64,000 bases of DNA from Dictyostelium discoideum. Taxonomy: Eukaryota. Under the pieces are notes generated by a model that was not told where the DNA came from, did not search any database, and was given only the letters and a program-made list of their open reading frames with translations. Made by a program: the position numbers and the translations under genes. Within the stretch, counting starts at the first letter, position 1. The number at the start of each line of letters is the position of its first letter. This document shows positions 19,028-57,869 of this stretch, piece after piece. The stretch spans positions 3,168,001 to 3,232,000 of the forward strand of contig CM000150.2 of the NCBI GenBank assembly GCA_000004695.1, written 5' to 3'.

Positions 19028-19843
19028 TTAATTTAAATTAAAAAATACTTTTGTATTATTAAAAGTTTGTAAAGCCATATCTTTTTCAGAGATATTATAA
19101 CATTGTGCTAAAGTTTTTAAAACATATGGCAAGAGAGAAGGTTCATTACGTATGAATTTTGAACGTGGGTCATTTTGTTTTGGTTTATCGATTGCATTTA
19201 TATTGTGAGGAGTCATATATGGACAATCAGTTTCAATCATTAAACGATCCAATGGGATGATACCAGATTTTAAGATTGCTCTTAATTGTTCACCTCTTTT
19301 ATCATGACCAATCACACCAGTGAAACCAATATAGAATCCCATTGAAACATACATTCTTGCTTCAGCTTCAGTACCTGTGAAACAGTGAATTACAGATTTT
19401 GGCATTGTGCCATCTTTTACATACTTTTCAACGACAGTGCAAAATTGTTTATGTGCATCTCTCTCGTGAATGAATAATGGTAATTTAAACTCTATTCCTA
19501 ATTGGATTTGTCTATCAAACATTTCGATTTGAGTTGCATGTGAGCTGAAATTACGATTGAAATCCAAACCACATTCACCAACTGATTTAACAACATTTAA
19601 ATTACTCTTTATCAATTGTCTCAACTCATCTTGTGCTTTCTCACCACTACCACCATTCATTTTCAATGTTTCCTCTGCTGAATGTGGATGAACTCCAACC
19701 GTTGAAAATAGTTCAACTAATCCTTTCTTTCTCTTATTACTCTCAATTAATTGTATTGCTTTAATTGATGATTTAACTGATGTACCTGTAATTATAATTT
19801 TTGTAACACCTTTCTAAAAAAATTAAAAAATTAAAAATTTTAA

Positions 19844-19878
<35 letters not shown>

Positions 19879-20197
19879 ATTAGTAACTTGATTTTACATA
19901 AATAATTAAAAAAATAAAAAAAATAAAAAAATTTACATTATAACCTCTTTCTAAAATTTGATCAATATCTCTTTCAAATGATTTATCAGCTAAATTTGCA
20001 CCAATATCAATAATTTCATTTTTAGTTGACTCCTTTATTATTGTTGGTACTAAAATTGGTTGAACTGCAGTTTGTGTTGTTGTTGTTGTTTGTCTATATG
20101 AAAATCCATTACTATTATTATTATTATTATTATTGTTATTATTTGTCCTCTTTACTGGTTTTGAACCTAAAGGTGGAAAATCGTCATGATCGTTCAT
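19028..20197 (-). CDS. TatD-family metal-dependent deoxyribonuclease/hydrolase
   Basis: Minus strand. Exon 1 is 19937..20197 (MNDHDDFPPLGSKP...poly-N...IIDIGANLADKSFERDIDQILERGYN), with a GTAAAT donor. The intron is 19814..19936. Exon 2 is 19028..19813 (KGVTKIIITGTSVKSS...VGVHPH...CGLDFN...HCFTG...ETDCPYMTPH). The characteristic TatD motifs (IDxGxNL, GxHPH, GLD, HCF, E-x-D) are present. The exon junction reproduces the conserved ...ERGYNKGVTKIIITG block. Confidence 0.8.
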
Positions 20198-20285: not shown

Positions 20286-20333
<48 letters not shown>

Positions 20334-20841
20334 GAAATTTTTCAAAAATGGTTAAAAGTCCTTCAAAAATAAATAAAAATATAATATATCCAGAATTAGG
20401 AAAAAAACAGATATTGAATTTGAAATGAGAATATAATATCAGATTTACCTTTTTTTTTCTGATTGTTTTATTTTTTTTTTTTTTTTCGATGGTTTTTTTT
20501 ATTTTAATTTCATTTTATTTTAAATTTTTTTTTTTTTTTTTTTTTTTTTTGTTAAACAAGAGCCTTATTTCTAATAAAATTAATTTAAATGATTAAAAAA
20601 AAAATAAAAAAAAAATTAAATAAAAAATAAAAAAAAATAAAATATAGAAAAAGAAAGAAAAATAAAAAAAAAAAAATAAAATATAGAAAAAGAAAGAAAA
20701 AAAATAAAATAAAATAAAATATAGAAAAATAAAGAAAAAAAAAAAAAAAAGAAAAAAAAAAAATTGTATATGTGTGTTAAAGTGTGTAAATCACACCAAT
20801 TGCAAATATTAACAATATTACAAATTATTATTTTTTTTTTT

Positions 20842-20887
<46 letters not shown>

Positions 20888-21060
20888 TATATGTACTAAA
20901 TTATTAAATAATAATTGTTTCGTTTTTCATAGAGATTATATTTTATTTATATATAATTTTTTTTTCATTCTAAAAATAAAATAGTTTTATATTCTACAAA
21001 ATAATTAATTTAACCCAAACCATATAAAAAAAAAAAAAAAAAAAAAAAATAGTATAATCA

Positions 21061-21225
21061 ATGGCCTTTGTAGATACCATATTCAAAAATATAAAAAGCT
21101 GCAACTACTCATGTATCGAATATCTTAAACAATGTTATATTTGTATAATTACACTTTATGGAATGTGCATTCAAGAAATTGCTCAATACTCCGCTTTAAC
21201 CATTACAATTAGCTTTATAAACGAA

Positions 21226-21267
<42 letters not shown>

Positions 21268-21405
21268 ACTAATAGAACAAACAATGAAATCTCATTGCCG
21301 AATGATATAGAAAGTAATATTAATAATAATTATAATATAAATAATAATATAAATAATAATTTCGAAAATGGTAATAATGATAATTGCATTGTAAATATAA
21401 AATAA
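21061..21405 (+). CDS. Hypothetical small Cys-rich/poly-Asn ORF (114 aa)
   Basis: Supported only by an ATG-initiated ORF preceded by an AT-rich promoter-like region. The product is Cys-rich at the N-terminus, then poly-N. No recognisable domain; it could be spurious. Confidence 0.2.
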
Positions 21406-21737
21406 GAAATAAATTAAAAAATTTGATAAAAATAAAAATAAAAATAGAAATAATCAAATGTATATTTAAATATAAATATTTTTTTTTTTTTTTTATTTTT
21501 TTATTATTTTTTTTTTCTTATTTTTTATCAATTAATCATACTATTTATGTTTATATTTATTTTTATTAATTAAATATAAAAAGTAAAGTTTAAAAAAACA
21601 ATAAAAATTAAAAAAATAAATTACATGAAATAAATTTTTTTTTCTCGCTAAAGTCGTATGTGAGCGCTGAATGTTGGTTGTTCTTGTTTTATATGTTATA
21701 GTTTGGTTTGATTTTTTTCTTTAAATTAATTATAAAA

Positions 21738-21948
21738 GGTTGGTGAGGCGCACTCTCGTAAATCTCTGAAGTTGTGCAATACAGAGCGAATGCGTAGAGG
21801 TCGAATGATGCAAGCACCAAACATATGACCTCACCTCGAAGAAAAATAAGTTTAATCGAATATGCACATCAACGTGTGATGGCAGAAAGAGATTAAGCTT
21901 TCTAGAACAGATACTACACATGATCAAAGCGAGACGCTTCAAGAAGGT
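21738..21948 (-). ncRNA. U2 spliceosomal snRNA (U2-like)
   Basis: A GC-richer island sits in AT-rich surroundings. The minus-strand sequence contains ...GCGUCUCGCUUUGAUCAUGUGUAGUAUCUGUUCUAGAAAGCUUAAUCUC.... This matches the conserved U2 5' region, including the branch-point-interacting GUGUAGUA box. It is followed by a U-rich Sm-like site (AUUUUUCUUCG) and two 3' stem-loops (GGUGAGGUC...GACCUC; GCGCACUCUCG...UGCGCC). A DUSE-like motif lies about 55-65 bp upstream. The ends are approximate. Confidence 0.6.
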
Positions 21949-22002
21949 GCCTTTTCAAAATGAAGAAACTACCCTTTTATATATTAAAATGAAAAAAAAA
22001 AT

Positions 22003-22010
22003 TTATGGGT
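22003..22010 (-). promoter_or_regulatory. DUSE-like upstream element (ACCCATAA) of the U2-like snRNA gene
   Basis: Plus-strand ttatgggt is ACCCATAA on the minus strand. This fits the Dictyostelium upstream sequence element consensus [AT]CCCA[CT]AA, which sits ~60 bp upstream of snRNA and other ncRNA genes. Here it lies ~55-65 nt upstream of the inferred U2 5' end. Confidence 0.45.
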
Positions 22011-22550
22011 TATTTAAGTTCAATAAAATTCAAAAAGTAATTAAAAAATAAAAAATTAAAAATTCATTTTTTTTTTTTTTTTATTTTTATTTTTTTTTTT
22101 TCTGAAATTTTTACAACACAACAAGTGTTTTTCAATTTAAATATATAATTCATTCAAAATATCTTTTGTTTTATCATTTAAATATCAAATGAAATATAAC
22201 CAAAGTTCATTATTTTTTTATTTTTTTATTTTTTATTTTTTTATGTGTATGGATTTCTTTTTCTGTATTGAATATTAATTTTTTTTTTTCTTTGTTATGA
22301 AATTTCAAATACCCTATGTTTTTAATAATTTTTTTTTTTTTTTTTTCATAAAAGATGGGTGAATGAGGAGGTGTTGATATTTTTTTAAACTTTAAAATAT
22401 TAAAATTATTAATATCTATTATAAAATTTAAATGTGATTATTATTTTTTTTTTTTTTATTATTGTTTTTTTTCTCATTAAATTATTTTTTGGTAAACTAA
22501 TTACTAGTTATCCAATGACCATTTTAAAATCATTCAAATTTAAATGTGAT

Positions 22551-22586
<36 letters not shown>

Positions 22587-22732
22587 CAATTTTTTTTTTC
22601 GTTTTTTGAAATTTTAAATTTATTTTAAATTTTTTTCATTTGTATATTAATATTAATAACGGACATCATAATTTCCGTTTCAGATTCTTTTTTTTTTTTT
22701 TTTTTTTTTTTTATTTTATTTTTTTATTTTTA

Positions 22733-22778
<46 letters not shown>

Positions 22779-22840
22779 CACAAATTTTTGATAAAGTAAA
22801 ATAAAAAAAACATAAATAAAAGTAAAAAAAAAAAAAAATA

Positions 22841-23418
22841 ATGGGTCCTAAAAAAGGAAAGAGGTCACATTCAAAAAACCATCATCACCATAATAATGGA
22901 AATAATAATAATAATAACAATAGTGGTGGTGGTAGTAGTAGTGATATTTTATATACATATAGTCAAGATACAAGAATATTATTATTTAAAGTGATATTAA
23001 CACAAAATGAAGAGATTATATGTATGGTTATACAAATTGCCTATGGATTACCAGGTTTACCAAAGATATCAGACATTTCTAGAGATTTAGGTATATTAAT
23101 ATTAAAATTACCAAATAGAACAATTAGAGAATTAGAATTATTTTTAGAATCTAAAAATATTTATTTTCGTGAAGATCAACATATAAATTATTTAAATGAA
23201 ATACCACAACCAACTACAACTACAACATCACCACCACCACCACCACCACCATCATCAATTTCAACAACAACAACAACAACAACAGCAACAGCAATAGAAA
23301 TTGAATCATCATCGGGACTAACATCAAATATAACAGATTCAACAGAAATTCAATTAGATTCAACTACGACTGATACAAAAACTACATCAACAACATCAAC
23401 AACAACAAATAATAGTAG

Positions 23419-23459
<41 letters not shown>

Positions 23460-23873
23460 GTAATAATATTTTAAATTTTCCATTTAATTGTCAAAATAAA
23501 TCAAAACAAAAAAGACCAATTTCAAAAGAAGAATCATTTAATAAAATGGTTCAATATAATTTTGATTTAGGTAAAATTTTCGATGAGTTTACAAGAGAAG
23601 TTTTATTAGATGATTTAAAGAATGATTTAAAGATTGATAATATACCCATTGACAATATATCAATATCACCAACACCAATCATTTCACCAGTTTTTCAAGA
23701 ATATGATTTGTTTTTAATGGATTCTTTCATTATACTTTGTGGTCAATTAGATAATGTAAAATTAACATTAGAAGAATTTAAAGATTATTATAAAAAGTAT
23801 ATATATATATTTTCATTTTATATGTTAACATTAATATTCATCATTATTTTAATTAACTTAAAATATTAATTAA

Positions 23874-23967
<94 letters not shown>

Positions 23968-24647
23968 TTTAGATATAAATTATTAAATCAATATATTGAA
24001 GATTTTAAAGATAATTTAATAAATGATTTTTTAGTAACAGTAGAGATATTAGCTAGTTGGTATATACCACAAAAGGATTATTCAATTGTTAAATTTATAA
24101 ATTGTTTTGGAGAAATGTTAGATTCAACGATTATAGAGAGTTTTTCATACATTTTCAATAAGACTATAAAGAAAGAGGATGATTGGTCAATTTCATTCAT
24201 TCAAGCGGCACTTGGATCCAATGAAGAATTTAAGAGACAAGTGATGTGTTTAAATGATGAATTAATTCAAGATAGATATGATCAATCATTGTATAGTATA
24301 ATGCATCCAATTAAATTTGACAATGTTAGAGAGTTTATTCTAATCTATAGTAGAGATGAAAATTATTTTGAACCACAAGAATTTTGGTATCTAATTTGTA
24401 AATACGATGCAATTGCAATCACTCAACATATAATCAACAATAATATAGCCGAAGAGGATCTATCCAAAAGATCAGGTAAAACCTATAATTCAAACTTGTC
24501 TGAAAATCCATTAGAAATCAATCCTCTAAGTTTATTAGAAATTTGTTCTGCAAATTTCTCTCATAAAATTGCATCAATCTTATTTCAATTTTATGATTTT
24601 AAAGATTCAATGCCAACAAGATTTAGTTTAAGAGGTGTTTTTAAACC

Positions 24648-24701
<54 letters not shown>

Positions 24702-27534
24702 AGATAAAGATGAAAAAGATAAAGAAAATAATAATAATAATGTAATATCACAACAATTTCAATATTTTAGAGTTTTAGATGTAAATTGTTATTTTAATGA
24801 TGTAATTAAAAAGAGAGCACCAATATTTATAGATTTAATGACACAATCAAATATTTATTTAAATACAGAGGTTGGTGAAGGATCGGATGAAAATGTTGAT
24901 ACTCATGAATCGATTTATTCATTTCAGAATAGTACCGAGTATTTAGCTATCAATTCAAATAGTATTCATAGATTGAAGAGGTCATCGATATCTTTACTTT
25001 CAAAGGTATTGGAATTTAATGATCGTGATACTTTGATATCGCTATTAAAGAATTTGACACAGGGTGGTTGTACATTATGCAAGGACCTAATTGACGAAAA
25101 ACAATTACTAATTACAATTAGTAGACCCCAATATCACCAAAGTATACAGATTCTACACCAAAATGGGTATACCATCATACCGAAATACCAACTACGTGAT
25201 CCTTACATCTTTTTTGCAGGCTCCAAACAAATCTTACAATATCTATTGGAAATTCACACAAATTCCCTCTCGGAGACTATAGATATCAGACACTGGATTC
25301 AGGCGATCATGAGTGCAGGTCAGTATAGCTCAGAGACTGAATTCTTTCAATACTATCCAAAGATTCAAGAATTATCATTACGCGATAAATATTCAAGAAC
25401 TTTAAATATTTTAGAATTACAATATATCCTTGGCCATATCGAAGGTATAGAATTCTTACTTGAGAAATATTTAGATTTCACTAAACCCTATCATTTAGAT
25501 AATCAAGAACTTTTAGAAATTTTCGATGTAACTTTTGTTCAAAAAAAAGATATTAGAACTGAAGAATCTTTAAAAGCTGAAAAAGATTTATTAGAACAAG
25601 AAGAAAATGAAAAAAAACGTTTAAAAGAAAAAAGAAAAAAAGAAGAAAAAGAAAAAAAAAAACAACAAAATTTAAAACAAAAATCTTTAATAACTAATAA
25701 TACTACTACTACTACTACTACTACACCAATACCAATTACAGTACCAATACCAACACAAACACAAACACCAACACAAACACCAACACAAACACCAATACCA
25801 ACACCAATACCAACAACACCAATACCAACAACACCAATACCAATACCAATTCAATTGACACCAACAACACCAAAAACACCAAAAACACCAAAAACACCAA
25901 AAACACCAACAACACCAAAAACACCAATAACACCCAAAACACCAAAAAATTCTACTTTAGATAAACAAACAATTTCAACACCAAAAACACCACCACCTTT
26001 ATCAGTAAATACAACACCAATAACACCATCACCACCACCACAAACTATAGCTACAACAATAACAACAACAACAACAACACCAAAAACAACAAAAACAACA
26101 ACAACATCAAAAATACCGACATTAATAATAGAATTAAATAAATATGATATTTCAATTGGTAAATTTAAATTTAGTAGAAAAGATGAATTTATAATTGGTA
26201 GAGGATCAAATGGTACATTAGTTTTTAAAGGTATTTGGAATGATAGAATACCAGTTGCAATTAAACAAATGCATAAAGCTTTTAATCCATTAATTAGTAA
26301 AGAGATTGAAGTATTAATTACATTAACAAATAAGAATTGTAATAACATCGTAAGATATATTGATCAAGAAGAAGATGATATGTTTGTTTATTTAGGTTTA
26401 ACATTATGTAATGGTTCTTTACAAAATTTAGTTGAAAAAGATTTAGAAATTAATTTAATATCAACATCAAATAATGAAAATAATAATAATAATAAATTAA
26501 AGAATTTTATTGGTTCAGAATTAAGATTATTAGAATTAATTAAAGATATTGTTTATGGTATTCAATTTTTACATCAACAAGGTATAGTTCATAATGATTT
26601 AAATCCAAGGAATATTTTAATTAAAGATGATAGATTCATTATATCGGATTTAGGGTTAAGTAAAATGGAAGTAACTTCGTCATACTCATTTACGATGCAT
26701 GCTCCAACTGGTCAAGAAGGTTTTCATCCGGCTGAAGTACTATTAGAGAAACGTAAAACTAAATCTGTTGATATCTTTTCAATGGGTTGTATTCTATTTT
26801 ATTTAATGACTGGTGGTCAACATCCATTTGGTGATAAATTCTTTAGAATGGCTAATATTTTAACAGATAAACCAATTCTAGAACCATTGAAACATAATTT
26901 AGTAGCATGTGATTTAATTAGTCAAATGATATCAAAAAATGAATCTGATAGACCAACTACTGAAAATATACTTTTACATCCATTCTTTTGGAATCATGAA
27001 AAGAAAGTTAAATTCATTGATGCTTCTTTAAATTTATTTAAAGATTCAAATGGTTTATTCACTTCAAAATTAAATAAATTAATTAATCAATTTCAAGATA
27101 CTGATGGTGTTAATACAACAAGCACACCATTTCTTTCGAAACCATGGAATCAATTAATTGATCCAACTTTAATTGAACATATTACAAATAAACAAAATCA
27201 ATTAAGTGGTGGTAGTAGTATTGGAAATAATAATAATAATAGTTTGACATTAAGTGGTAAAAAATTTTATTTTTATGATTATTCTCAAGTAAAAGATTTA
27301 GTACGTTGTATTAGAAATACAATACAACATCATAAAGAGATTCAAAGATTAATTTCACAATCACCATCATCATCAAATAAACAAGAAGTGTTGGATTGTT
27401 TAGAGAGTCAAGAATTAGTTTTATCTTATTTTGAAGAAAAAGTTCCCGACCTTTTACTCTTTCTTTATCAAAAGTTTAAAAAACATTTGGATTCAAAATC
27501 CTTAATTTATTTTAATGATTTAATTATTAAATAA
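22841..27534 (+). CDS. IRE1/RNase L-like protein: large N-terminal region + (pseudo)kinase domain + KEN endoribonuclease domain (paralog A)
   Basis: Exon 1 is 22841..23796 with a GTATAT donor. The intron is 23797..23972 and contains an (ATT)~29 tract. Exon 2 is 23973..27534. The kinase domain (about 26130-27000) has [18 protein letters not shown], a catalytic loop HNDLNPRN in place of HRDLKPxN, and DLG in place of DFG. The KEN domain has [19 protein letters not shown], and a motif [16 protein letters not shown] matching the IRE1/RNase L catalytic block RNxxxHH. A Thr/Pro-rich linker (TPK repeats) precedes the kinase. Confidence 0.8.
23878..23966. repeat. (ATT)~29 intronic microsatellite in kinase-KEN paralog A
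   Basis: Lies inside intron 23797..23972. Confidence 0.85.
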
Positions 27535-27967: not shown

Positions 27968-28292
27968 ATGAAAAGTAATTACAGTACATATCTTTATAAA
28001 ATGTCAGAATTAGAAAGGATAGTGAATGGTGGTGACGTTTCAAGTATTTTCATTGAACAAGATGATGTATTAGGTGAAATTAAAAACTTTAACTATGATT
28101 TATATACAAAATATGATTCATTAGTTTTAAAAGATCCTCAAACTCAAAATAATTCACCAAAACCACCAAGCCTAGAAATATTTATACTAGTTAATTTAAT
28201 AGCGTTATGTGGTAGAATTAATGATAAATTTCCAAATTTAGATAAATTTTTAACTCATTATAAATATGCGTATGTATTTTAAATTATTTTAA

Positions 28293-28382
<90 letters not shown>

Positions 28383-29101
28383 AATATAATAGTACTAATA
28401 TATTTAACTTATTAAGTGAAAATATTATAAATTCTATTGAAAAATTTAAAGAAACATTATCAAAAGATTTACCAAGTTTTCAATTATCAGTTATAGCGAA
28501 TAGTTCAATTGTAAAAAAAGATAATTCAATTATAAAGTTTTTAAGTTGTTTTGGATCATTTATGAAATTAGAATCAATTGAATATTTTGGATCAGTATTT
28601 AATAGTTTAATAGGAGAAGAGGACCAATTCTCATTAGATTTATTACAAGTTTTAATTGATAGTTCAAATGAATATAAAAAGTTTTTACAAATTTTAGAAT
28701 TTAATCAATTACAAAAATATTATGATGATGGTCATCTTTGTTTATTTCATTCAATTAAATTTGATAATTTAAATGAATTTAAATTATTATTTAATGATTC
28801 TACTTGGTGTCAACAGCAACAGCAGCAACAACAAATAAATCCTCAAATATTTTGGTTTATACTTTGTAAATATAATTCATCAAAAATTGCCCATTATCTT
28901 TTAAATGATTATCAAATTAATAAAAAATCATTAAAACAAAAGAATCCATTAGAAATTAGTCCTGTAACTCTATTAGAAATCGCTTTCTTATGTTTTAGTG
29001 ATAAAATTGCAATTGTATTATTTTCACAATTTAATTATCATGAATTATTACCAAAGAAATCAAAAATGAAACATTTAATTAAATCAACTTCAACTTTAAT
29101 A

Positions 29102-29195
<94 letters not shown>

Positions 29196-32100
29196 GTAAA
29201 AATATCGGATTAACACAATATACAGTTTTAGAAGGTTATTTTTTAATTAATATTAGAACAAGGAGTAGGATAGCACCATTTATCGAAGTTTTAACAATGA
29301 ATGGTATCCATTTAACAAATGATATAATACATACTAGAATTAAATCAATGAGTTCTGATTCAATATTTAGAATATTTACAGAACAATACCAACAACAACA
29401 ACAGAATCCACTAAATAATAATCAAAAACAAATTCAATTTAATGAAAATTTCACAAGACAACAAAAAATAGATTTCGATAATTGTCCAAATGAAATTGAT
29501 ACTTTTATTTTAGATAAAACTCAATGTAATTTAATAACATTATCTCAAGAGTTTTCAATCAAAGTTAGAGCATTCACATTTTATTTGTCATTTGGTGAAA
29601 TATTCACTTGTTCTTGTGAAGACTATAAAAGAGAATTCTCTTGTAAACATATGTTTTTCATTCTTTTAAATTATTATCATGTTCCAAGAAATTCCTATCT
29701 AATCTATCAAAGACAATTTACAGAGATTGAAAGATATTCAATAATTATGAATATAGATTTAAGTAAAATTAATTCAAGAATATATGGTACTCCAAATTTT
29801 AATACTTTTTTTAAAATTAAATCATCACCATCATCAACAACATCACCATTTCAAAGTATTAATAATAACAATAATAATAATTTAAACAATAATAATAATA
29901 ATAATTTAAATAATAATAATAATAATGAAAATGAAAATAAATTTAAAGAAGATGGTGATGATGAAATTTTACAAAATTTAAATAGATTAAATTATATATT
30001 ATTAAGGGATTTTGAATTTGGACCAAATGATATTACAACTAAACTTCGAGAAACTCATATAAATCTATTTGATAGATTATTACTTATAGAGGATAATTTA
30101 GAGGCATTGGATAAGATATTAAAGAATTTCACTCAAAAAGGTTGTACATTATCAAGGGATTTGGTTGGTGATCGTAATCTATTGGTTTTAGTGGCAATTC
30201 TAGATTCAACTTCAAAAGAGAAACTATCATTATTGAACAAGTATTGGCCATTACCTGAAAAAACGAAAAAGTTTGCTATTCCATTAATTTTCTTTGCAAT
30301 ATCTGAAGAATGTTTAAAAATGTTTATTCAAATCTCTCCAAATTTAGTTAAATCAACTTTAAACTTACATGATTGGATTTCAATTCTAACTGAATTCGCC
30401 TTAATTAATGAAACTTTCTTAGACCATTACCCACTTTTATCCGCTTGGTATAGTGATGCTCGTTCAGTTGAAACCTCATTATTTAGATTATTCACCTGTA
30501 TGGATAAAATAGATTGTATAAATTACTTAATTCAAACCTATCTTTTACCAATTCCAACTTTCAAAAATACTCTAAATAATTTTGAAACTTGTTACTTTTT
30601 TGAAACTTATTTCCTTGAAAACTCCTCAATCAAAGCTGAACAATACTTATTAGAACAGGAACTATTAGAAAAAAAAAAACAAAAAGAAAAAAAAAAACAA
30701 AAACAAAAACAATCAAAATCAAAAATTATTAATAATCCTTTATCATCATCATCATCATCATCATCATCACCATCAACTTCTAATACTACAATCACCTCAA
30801 CAACACCAACAACAACAACAACCACCACCACAACAACAACACCAACAACTACAACAACAACAACAACAACATCATCACCAAAACAAAAACCTATAACTCC
30901 AATTAAAAAAGAAATAGAAAAAGAATTTGAAAAAATTGAACTTACTACACCACCACCACCATTGGCAACAACCAAACAACAACAAATTAATGAAAATTAT
31001 GATATTTCAATTGGTAAATTTAAATTTAATAGAAAAGAAGAGAATGTATTAGGTAGAGGATCAAATGGTACATTAGTTTTTAAAGGTATTTGGAATAATA
31101 GAATTCCAGTTGCAATTAAACAAATGCAAAAGATGTTTAATCCATTAATTAGTAAAGAGATTGAAGTATTAATTACATTAACAAATAAGAATTGTTATAA
31201 CATTGTAAGATATATTGATCAAGAAGAAGATGAATCATGCGTTTATTTAGGTTTAACACTATGTGATGGTTCTTTGCAAAATTTAGTTGAAAAAGGTGAT
31301 AATAACCTGACATTAACTCAATTTTTAGGCTATGATATTAATAGCAGTAGTAAAAATAATTCAAGATTATTAGAACTAATTAAAGATATTGTTTATGGTA
31401 TTCAATTTTTACATCAACAAGGTATAGTTCATAATGATTTAAATCCAAGGAATATTTTAATTAAAGATGATAGATTCATTATATCGGATTTAGGGCTAAG
31501 TAAAATGGAAGTAACTTCATCATACTCATTTACGATGCATGCTCCAACTGGTCAAGAAGGTTTTCATCCGGCTGAAGTACTATTAGAGAAACGTAAAACT
31601 AAATCTGTTGATATCTTTTCAATGGGTTGTATTCTATTTTATTTAATGACTGGTGGTCAACATCCATTTGGTGATAAATTCTATCGTATTGTTAATATTT
31701 TAACAGATAAACCAATCCTCGAACCATTGAAACATAATTTAGTAGCATGTGATTTAATTAGTCAAATGATATCAAAAAATGAATCTGATAGACCAACAAT
31801 TGAAAAAATACTTTTACATCCATTCTTTTGGAATCATGAAAAGAAAGTTAAATTCATTGATGCTTCTTTAAATTTATTTAAAGATTCAAATGGTTTATTC
31901 ACTTCAAAATTAAATAAATTAATTAATTATCAAGAAATTAATTTAAAAAATAATATTGATAGTAGTAGTAGTAATAATAATAATAATATAAATAGTAATG
32001 TAATTAATAATAATAATAATAATAATAATGGTATGGCGACTAATATACCATTTTTATCAAAACCATGGAACCAATTAATTGATCAAACTTTAATTGAACA

Positions 32101-32425
32101 TATAATAAATAAACAAAATCAATTAAATGGTGTCGGTAATAATAAAAAGGTAATAATTTACAGTTTTGATCAAGTAAAAGATTTAGTACGTTGTATTAGA
32201 AATACAATACAACATCATAAAGAGATTCAAAGATTAGTTAGACAATCACCATCATCAAATGGTGATAATAAACAAGAAGTTTTGGATTGTTTAGAGAGTC
32301 AAGAATTAGTTTTATCTTATTTTGAAGAAAAAGTTCCCGACCTTTTACTCTTTCTTTATCAAAAGTTTAAAAAACATTTGGATTCAAAATCCTTAATTTA
32401 TTTTAATGATTTAATAATTAAATAA
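27968..32425 (+). CDS. IRE1/RNase L-like (pseudo)kinase-KEN protein with an extra SWIM-type zinc finger (paralog B)
   Basis: Exon 1 is 27968..28269 with a GTATGT donor. The intron is 28270..28392 and contains an (ATT)~28 tract. Exon 2 is 28393..32425. The intron position and phase (phase 2) match paralog A. A SWIM CxCxnCxH motif ([18 protein letters not shown]) lies at about 29603-29660. The kinase and KEN domains are almost nucleotide-identical to paralog A, including HNDLNPRN and the RNTIQHH motif. Confidence 0.8.
28296..28380. repeat. (ATT)~28 intronic microsatellite in kinase-KEN paralog B (same intron position as in paralog A)
   Basis: Lies inside intron 28270..28392. Confidence 0.85.
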
Positions 32426-54818: not shown

Positions 54819-54889
54819 GGCTCCTTAGCATAGTGGTATTGCGCTTCCCTAGTAAGGAAGAGGTCATGAGTTCGATCCTCATAGGAGCC
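54819..54889 (+). tRNA. tRNA-Thr (anticodon AGU)
   Basis: The sequence GGCTCCTTAGCATAGTGGTATTGCGCTTCCCTAGTAAGGAAGAGGTCATGAGTTCGATCCTCATAGGAGCC folds as a cloverleaf. The acceptor stem GGCTCCT/AGGAGCC has 7 bp. The anticodon stem is CTTCC/GGAAG, with loop CTAGTAA (anticodon AGT). The T-arm is ATGAG-TTCGATC-CTCAT. A-box (TAGCATAGTGG) and B-box (GGTTCGATCC) promoters are present. Confidence 0.85.
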
Positions 54890-54924
54890 TTTTATATAAA
54901 TATAAATCTGAACCATATATCGCA

Positions 54925-57361: not shown

Positions 57362-57869
57362 TTAATATTTAAACCTACATCTGTTTGAATTACTATTTAA
57401 TTTCCTTATTACAGATGAAGAGCTTATTTGTCTCTCAAGTCTAAAAACACCATTTTCAAATATTAATAAACATTCCATCTCTTTACAAGGTTTATATGCA
57501 CCAAAGAAATCGAATTTCTCATTAGTTGATGTATGATTATGCTGTATATGAATTGAGCCTTGATTCATCTTTATTAACGCTTTACTTGTATCCAGACTCT
57601 TGGGTTTAAGATTATCTATTATAAATTATTATTATTATTATTATTATTTTTATTTATTATTATAATTGTTTTTTTTTTTAATTAATTTTTAAAAACAGTA
57701 GACTAAAAATATTTATATATTTATTAAAAAAAAAAAAAAAGTGATACTTACATTGTAATGTATGATATTGTTCATTATTAACAAAATCACTATCCCTCTC
57801 CATTGTGGGACCTATTTCAACATCATATGTCATATCATTCTCTGGTTGTTTAATATTTGATGTTGCCAT
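57362..57869 (-). CDS. EAF (ELL-associated factor) homolog, N-terminal EAF domain, 2 exons (+ probable third exon 55232..57108)
   Basis: Minus strand. Exon 1 is 57752..57869 (MATSNIKQPENDMTYDVEIGPTMERDSDFVNNEQYHTLQ), with a GTAAGT donor. The intron is 57616..57751. Exon 2 starts at 57615 (YNLKPKSLDTSKALIKMNQGSIHIQHNHTSTNEKFDFFGAYKPCKEMECLLIFENGVFRLERQISSSSVIRKLN). The motifs Y(D/N)xKPxSxDTS ... KxCxLI...G.(Y/F).LE...SSS match the EAF family. Exon 2 either runs to the stop at 57362, or it is spliced at a GTAATT donor after 57394 (phase 1) to the downstream S/D-rich ORF. Confidence 0.65.

Follow-up and report, generated by a model that had tools for sequence, protein, structure and literature searches.

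The closest described systems are the spliceosomal RNA genes of Dictyostelium discoideum itself. The U2 RNA of this organism was isolated experimentally in 2004 (Aspegren et al. 2004), and 17 snRNA genes, all of them with an upstream element, were described in 2006 and loaded into dictyBase (Hinas et al. 2006). The supplementary family table of PMC3188802 counts 18 'rnu' genes, and the annotation in the DdNKAP CLIP data set names two of the U2 genes in dictyBase, rnu2a (DDB_G0295491) and rnu2b (DDB_G0295497), which are comparably covered in the CLIP table. The upstream element, DUSE, is given the consensus [AT]CCCA[AT or CT]AA; in D. discoideum and D. purpureum it precedes ncRNA genes by about 60-63 nt. 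According to the same two sources, it precedes all D. discoideum spliceosomal RNA genes and serves Pol II and Pol III genes alike (PMC7919456; PMC3188802).

We analysed a 64-kb stretch of chromosome 1 of D. discoideum, positions 3,168,001-3,232,000 (hereafter the window), in which a sequence-only reading had placed a U2 snRNA gene with a DUSE promoter. That claim stands on three results, namely a match to the full RF00004 model, a published transcript with the same bounds and a DUSE at a conserved, canonical distance. We conclude, with a probability of roughly 0.93, that this D. discoideum locus is a canonical gene for the spliceosomal U2 snRNA, functional and transcribed. It shares with the described rnu genes the organism, the RNA and a promoter architecture with a DUSE about 60-63 nt upstream. 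The sequence-only reading had also called the gene hidden, which is apt insofar as an ORF track is blind to RNA genes and inapt insofar as U2 genes with a DUSE are a described D. discoideum class. Genes of this type have been on record for the organism since 2004-2006, and the locus is at most a mislabelled or unlisted member of it.

More widely, the DUSE-dependent promoters of dictyostelid ncRNA genes (Class I RNAs, snoRNAs and snRNAs) have the same motif about 60 nt from the start, conserved across species; the locus differs from them in its TATA-like box at -33. With the Pol II snRNA genes of metazoans and plants it has in common a compact gene outside mRNA units and an upstream element at about -60, and its proximal TATA-like box is as in the plant genes. 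The DUSE sequence is dictyostelid-specific, unlike the PSE/DSE or USE+TATA promoters of metazoan and plant snRNA genes.

Genomic setting and base composition

Chromosome 1 gene coordinates were taken from the synteny table of Sucgang et al. 2011 (PMC3188802, supplementary file 2) and from the neighbour table of PMC5295588. One and the same offset, 3,168,000, gives exact ORF bounds for all four genes compared (tatD, DDB_G0270588, irlD and irlC; Table 1), and in a homology search the tatD exon matched 'tatD-related DNAse [Dictyostelium discoideum AX4]' with 100% identity. The U2 gene is situated between tatD, accompanied by the small gene DDB_G0270588, and irlD.

The locus had been recognised as a GC island in AT-rich surroundings, and its base composition agrees: the 207-nt RNA has 42.5% GC, against 15% in the far flanks. 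Measured in 100-nt windows, the GC fraction is 0.36-0.43 across 21700-21950 and 0.05-0.17 on either side. A GC-richer patch (about 0.30; ...cagcgctcacatacgactttagcgag...) is also present at 21650-21700, just 3' of the U2 gene; it is absent from the three orthologous loci and lies outside the transcript model described below.

The neighbouring genes offer some observations of their own. DDB_G0270588 is a small asparagine-rich ORF of 114 aa, without a Pfam family, between tatD and U2. Genes of 111-127 aa are called at its position in D. firmibasis and D. citrinum, and at that of D. dimigraforme an 837-aa gene is called and no small one. On the other side, irlD and irlC are tandem paralogues encoding IRE1-like kinases, and the D. 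firmibasis gene at the irlD/irlC position has Pkinase and Ribonuc_2-5A domains. By eye, the ORF translations of irlD and irlC look almost the same in their C-terminal halves, and that of irlC has a SWIM-like CxC...CxH motif.

Table 1. Coordinates of the U2 gene, its parts, its flanking elements and its neighbours in the window; negative numbers are distances from the inferred start A21948
Feature	Window position	Strand	Remarks
U2 snRNA gene	21743-21948	minus	chromosome 1 ~3,189,743-3,189,948, D. discoideum AX4
Stem-loop I	21924-21944	minus	covariance-model alignment and pair list
GCU segment	21930-21928	minus	within stem-loop I; putative U6 helix Ib
GAUCA segment	21925-21921	minus	adjoins stem-loop I; putative U6 helix Ia
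Branch-point recognition GUAGUA	21912-21917	minus	unpaired columns, the model's invariant GUAGUA; invariant in four species
Stem-loop IIa	21903-21884	minus	6/6 pairs canonical
Stem-loop IIb	21882-21866	minus	5/7 pairs canonical
Sm-binding site (putative) AUUUUUC	21841-21847	minus	aligned to model AUUUUUG; invariant in four species
Stem-loop III	21796-21833	minus	11/13 pairs canonical; UU loop on GGUGC/GCAUC stem
Stem-loop IV	21750-21793	minus	11/12 pairs canonical
Loop IV motif AUUGCAC	21780-21774	minus	
DUSE ACCCATAA	22003-22010	minus	-62 to -55; sequence and motif search
TATA-like box TATATAAAA	21975-21983	minus	TATAAAA core starts at -33; putative function
Promoter-proximal block TTCATTTTGAAAAGG	21950-21964	minus	-16 to -2; partly conserved, four-species alignment
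Conserved 3' flank	21712-21737	minus	T run 21737-21734, then AATTTAAAGAAAAAAA 21727-21712
70-aa ORF, TTG start	21730-21942	minus	same strand as the U2 gene, overlaps it
tatD (DDB_G0269630)	19028-20197 (ORF bounds); exon 19031-19666	minus (exon)	chromosome 1 3187028-3188197
DDB_G0270588	21061-21405	plus	chromosome 1 3189061-3189405
irlD	22841-27534	plus	chromosome 1 3190841-3195534
irlC	27968-32425	plus	chromosome 1 3195968-3200425

Identity and structure of the U2 RNA

A scan against the Rfam U2 family had been proposed as a check on the locus. The covariance models of Rfam 15, run over the whole window at gathering thresholds, returned two matches only: RF00004 (U2) at 21743-21950 on the minus strand (93.5 bits against a gathering score of 46, E 2.2e-17) and a tRNA at 54819-54890. 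The U2 alignment is untruncated and covers all of model positions 1-192 of 192, with a score double the gathering score; its E-value in a search of the local region was 8.8e-19. In a permissive Rfam scan of 20300-22840, RF00004 was the sole match and no other RNA family appeared even at E<=1. The second match in the window is a tRNA-Thr(AGT) gene on the plus strand, with an Rfam score of 65.5 bits, which ARAGORN confirms.

The RNA is about 206 nt long, starting at A21948 (ACCUUCUUGAAGCG...) and ending in ...GCGCCUCAC(C). Read along the minus strand, the locus runs from ...AACCCATAAA... through the DUSE, ...TATATAAAAGGG... (21983-21972) and ...TTCATTTTGAAAAGGC to the RNA, ACCTTCTTGAAGCGTCTCGCTTTGATCATGTGTAGTATCTGTTCT...GCGCCTCACC, and on into the A/T-rich flank. 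The 5' functional core of U2, which the first description of the locus named, is found as the 22-mer GATCATGTGTAGTATCTGTTCT at 21925-21904 (minus), with GUAGUA at 21917-21912. The U-rich Sm site and terminal stem-loops described there were likewise recovered, the former as AUUUUUC at 21847-21841 and the latter as stem-loops III and IV aligned to the Rfam structure. The Sm site lies between stem IIb and stem III, and its 3' base is C where the consensus (A U4-6 G) has G. In total, 39 of the 45 base pairs of the Rfam consensus are canonical, and the six exceptions are all at helix ends. A single-sequence minimum-free-energy fold (z = -2.3 against shuffles) recovers the canonical fold in part, and we give it little weight. 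U2 RNAs generally use GCU and GAUCA to pair with U6, in helices Ib and Ia respectively, and the AUUGCAC-type motif of loop IV binds U2B''/U2A' in other organisms.

With the U2 RNAs of Rfam, such as human RNU2-1 and the 5' domain of yeast LSR1, the locus has in common the branch-site region GUAGUAUCUGUUCU, the GCU and GAUCA segments, stem-loops I-IV, a putative U-rich Sm site and the AUUGCA motif of loop IV. It departs from known U2 at its 5' end, which is ACCUUCU instead of AUCGCUUCU, and two bases before GUAGUA, where U replaces A (GAUCAUGUGUAGUA); it also has a 3-nt loop in stem I and the C-ended Sm site. At about 206 nt it is longer than vertebrate U2, which measures 187-191 nt.

The U-for-A core (ATCATGTGTAGTATCTGTTCT) was found by a 21-mer scan in 95 metagenome stretches (L004-L098) from unrelated eukaryotes. 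As candidate dictyostelid U2 genes, these stretches were rejected: their BLAST similarity is restricted to the universal 5' core, and none is dictyostelid. The U-for-A variant before GUAGUA is not a Dictyostelium signature and is common in other protists.

Promoter and flanking elements

A DUSE about 60 bp upstream had been part of the original description, and the distance proved accurate, the first base of the element lying 60 nt from the start of the Rfam model and 62 nt from A21948. The motif by itself is not enriched, with three matches to WCCCAYAA in the window against 9.9 expected from shuffles, and the argument from the DUSE consequently rests on its position and its conservation. From the shuffle density (about 8e-5 per position per strand), we estimate the chance of a match within +/-5 nt of -62 at about 1e-3. 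The window holds other matches to the DUSE consensus at 2371-2378 and 57803-57810 (minus), which by reading of the sequence lie in or beside coding exons. No GC-rich, RNA-like block was found about 60 nt downstream of either, and both look like chance matches.

Between the DUSE and the RNA lie the TATA-like box and the promoter-proximal block. In the latter (TTCATTTTGAAAAGG), TTCATTT and AAG are invariant in four species and the other positions vary; its conservation is lower than that of the RNA.

Downstream of the RNA, the 3' flanks of the four species can be aligned over roughly 35 nt, and not farther. It occupies the place where the 3' box of metazoan snRNA genes, GTTTN0-3AAARNNAGA, would lie, and its resemblance to that box is weak in DNA so rich in A and T. 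The AATTTAAAGAAAAAAA segment may be a candidate 3'-box-like signal for 3'-end formation or processing, a weak suggestion given the AT-rich DNA and the close relationship of the species compared.

Conservation across Dictyostelium

Orthologous loci were found via the tatD protein and its cluster members. The tatD loci compared were those of a second, D. discoideum-identical assembly (L001), D. dimigraforme (L002), D. firmibasis (L099) and D. citrinum (L100). Each of the four fetched loci has one RF00004 match directly upstream of tatD on the same relative strand, with scores of 93.5 bits in the second D. discoideum assembly, 97.8 in D. dimigraforme, 92 in D. firmibasis and 95.6 in D. citrinum. 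The tatD locus of P. violaceum gave no U2 match, and synteny is broken there.

Among D. discoideum, D. citrinum, D. firmibasis and D. dimigraforme, the U2 RNA is about 98-99% identical, whereas the flanks have diverged. Comparison with D. dimigraforme gives 206 matches in 209 aligned positions (2 mismatches and 1 indel) for the RNA region, compared with 33 matches, 21 mismatches and 35 gapped positions for the 54 nt upstream of the DUSE. In the four-species alignment, the invariant stretch has A21948 as its exact first base and extends to C21742; the two bases before A21948 read GC, TT, GT and GT. Five interspecies differences lie within the RNA, four of them at 21933, 21825, 21778 and 21771 and the fifth an A inserted after 21827, and all fall at positions that are unpaired in the Rfam structure. 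D. discoideum is set apart from its relatives by its bases at 21949 and 21771 and by the lack of the A after 21827. Only close relatives were compared, and these provide no compensatory changes.

Promoter geometry is retained as well. The DUSE reads ACCCATAA at -62 in D. discoideum and D. citrinum, TCCCATAA at -63 in D. dimigraforme and, in degenerate form, AACCATAA at -63 in D. firmibasis. The TATA-like box is TATAAAA at -33 in D. discoideum, ATAAAAG at -32 in D. citrinum, TATAAAA at -34 in D. dimigraforme and a degraded GATAAGT at -33 in D. firmibasis. The alignments indicate that the U2 gene and its promoter geometry are under purifying selection in the four Dictyostelium species.

The syntenic U2 of D. 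firmibasis (L099:8020-8294) deserves separate mention. It has a U-to-C change in the AUUGCAC of loop IV and the lowest Rfam score of the four, and its DUSE is of the two-C form, which is reported mainly for group 2 and 3 species (PMC7919456). With a degenerate DUSE and GATAAG in place of TATAAAA, this gene may be a weakened copy.

These comparisons bear directly on whether the D. discoideum locus could be a transcribed but functionless U2 pseudogene or retro-copy. snRNA families often include pseudogenes, and polyadenylated snRNAs, a possible substrate for retro-copying, are reported for D. discoideum in the title of a published paper. A retro-copy is contradicted by the sequence directly after the 3' end, which has no A tail, and by the DUSE and TATA-like box that the locus possesses at canonical distances. 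Synteny in four species, with 98-99% identity between diverged flanks and changes in unpaired positions only, is equally at odds with loss of function, as is the integrity of every functional motif. We regard a pseudogene as highly improbable.

The position of the 5' end addresses another reading, in which the locus encodes not the canonical spliceosomal U2 but a divergent, developmentally regulated and cytoplasm-enriched U2 variant (Hinas et al. 2006). Divergent U2 variants exist in the D. discoideum genome, and the published transcript at the locus has a developmental profile, with a Spearman correlation of 0.89 to that of the neighbour DDB_G0270588 (PMC5295588). For the transcript as for the invariant block, however, the first base is A21948, which lies 2 nt downstream of the Rfam model start, and there is no 5' extension. 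The divergent variants reportedly carry an extra 5' stem-loop, and a DUSE at -62 leaves no room for such an extension. Taken with the high, full-length Rfam score and the intact functional boxes, this makes the variant quite unlikely, and the canonical U2 gene is the reading that we retain.

Transcription and the lncRNA catalogue

Expression of the locus had been named as a further check, and it is documented in published RNA-seq. Rosengarten et al. (G3 2017; PMC5295588) sequenced rRNA-depleted, strand-specific libraries of AX4 during growth and development, and their supplement (File S4/S6) lists a one-exon, 205-nt transcript at chr1:3189743-3189948(-), DDB_G3970835, flanked by DDB_G0270588 and irlD and classed as 'lncRNA'. 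Through the coordinate offset, this transcript corresponds to 21743-21948 of the window, that is, to the U2 gene. An RNA of roughly 205 nt with these bounds accumulates in cells. The 5' end of this independent transcript model (3189948) coincides with the conservation boundary at A21948. The catalogue uses uniquely mapped reads only, and the share of this copy in the cellular U2 is not deducible from it.

The catalogue label raises the question of whether DDB_G3970835 is a lncRNA unrelated to splicing, or else the gene for a 70-aa peptide, given that a 70-codon ORF is present. As described in PMC5295588, the 'lncRNA' class is set by filters alone (at least 200 nt, intergenic, reads present). 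The label is thus no evidence against U2, because it reflects a pipeline filter and not a functional test, and the sequence matches U2 at E 2e-17. The ORF fares no better: it had been dismissed as meaningless from the start, and rightly so, since it begins with TTG, has no Pfam match at E<=1 and lies on the same strand as the U2 RNA. D. discoideum and the other three species differ by a 1-nt indel within the stretch covered by the ORF, and the interspecies changes follow the RNA structure, not codons. The ORF is an artefact of reading an RNA gene as protein, and we find either form of this explanation barely credible beside a canonical U2 gene.

The lncRNA catalogue published for D. discoideum holds at least one snRNA, the U2 described here. 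It also lists a second one-exon 'lncRNA', CUFF_190_1, at chr1:1479198-1479403 (+), likewise of 205 nt (PMC5295588). This is the only 205-nt transcript of chromosome 1 in the catalogue besides the U2 locus, and it is probably another canonical U2 gene.

We infer that the locus is very probably one of the known D. discoideum rnu genes. More probably than otherwise, it and chr1:1479198-1479403 are rnu2a and rnu2b, the catalogue pipeline having ignored existing ncRNA annotation. This reading is suggestive and not conclusive, because it draws on the presence of exactly one more 205-nt transcript on chromosome 1 and of two comparably covered U2 genes in the CLIP table. It is unlikely, in our judgement, that the locus falls outside the 17-18 curated snRNA genes and is an unrecognised extra canonical U2 gene. 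If it did, the community would know it by no name but the anonymous 'lncRNA' DDB_G3970835, the second 205-nt 'lncRNA' would probably be in the same situation, and a correction of the lncRNA catalogue would be due.

Proposed mechanism and implications

The arrangement of the locus suggests how the gene would work. The DUSE and the TATA-like box would direct snRNA-type transcription by RNA polymerase II from A21948. We favour Pol II because the internal run of five T in the Sm site would be expected to terminate Pol III. The 3' end would form near 21743, where the conserved A/T-rich flank may act as a guide. An Sm ring would then assemble on AUUUUUC and the cap would be hypermethylated; Dictyostelium U2 reportedly carries a trimethylguanosine cap.

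In the spliceosome, GUAGUA would pair with the intron branch site and bulge out the branch adenosine, and the catalytic core would be built through pairing of GAUCA and GCU with U6, in helices Ia and Ib. The SF3 and U2A'/U2B'' proteins would sit on stem-loops IIa/IIb, III and IV.

For users of the lncRNA catalogue, whether for expression correlations or for GC-content statistics, it matters that one of its entries is the U2 snRNA. The locus also illustrates that in an AT-rich genome RNA genes can be spotted as GC islands from the sequence alone. For Dictyostelium itself, the analysis establishes how one D. discoideum U2 gene is laid out, from its DUSE at -62 and TATA-like box at -33 through its start and end to the conserved 3' flank, and it places a U2 gene in synteny upstream of tatD in four species of the genus.
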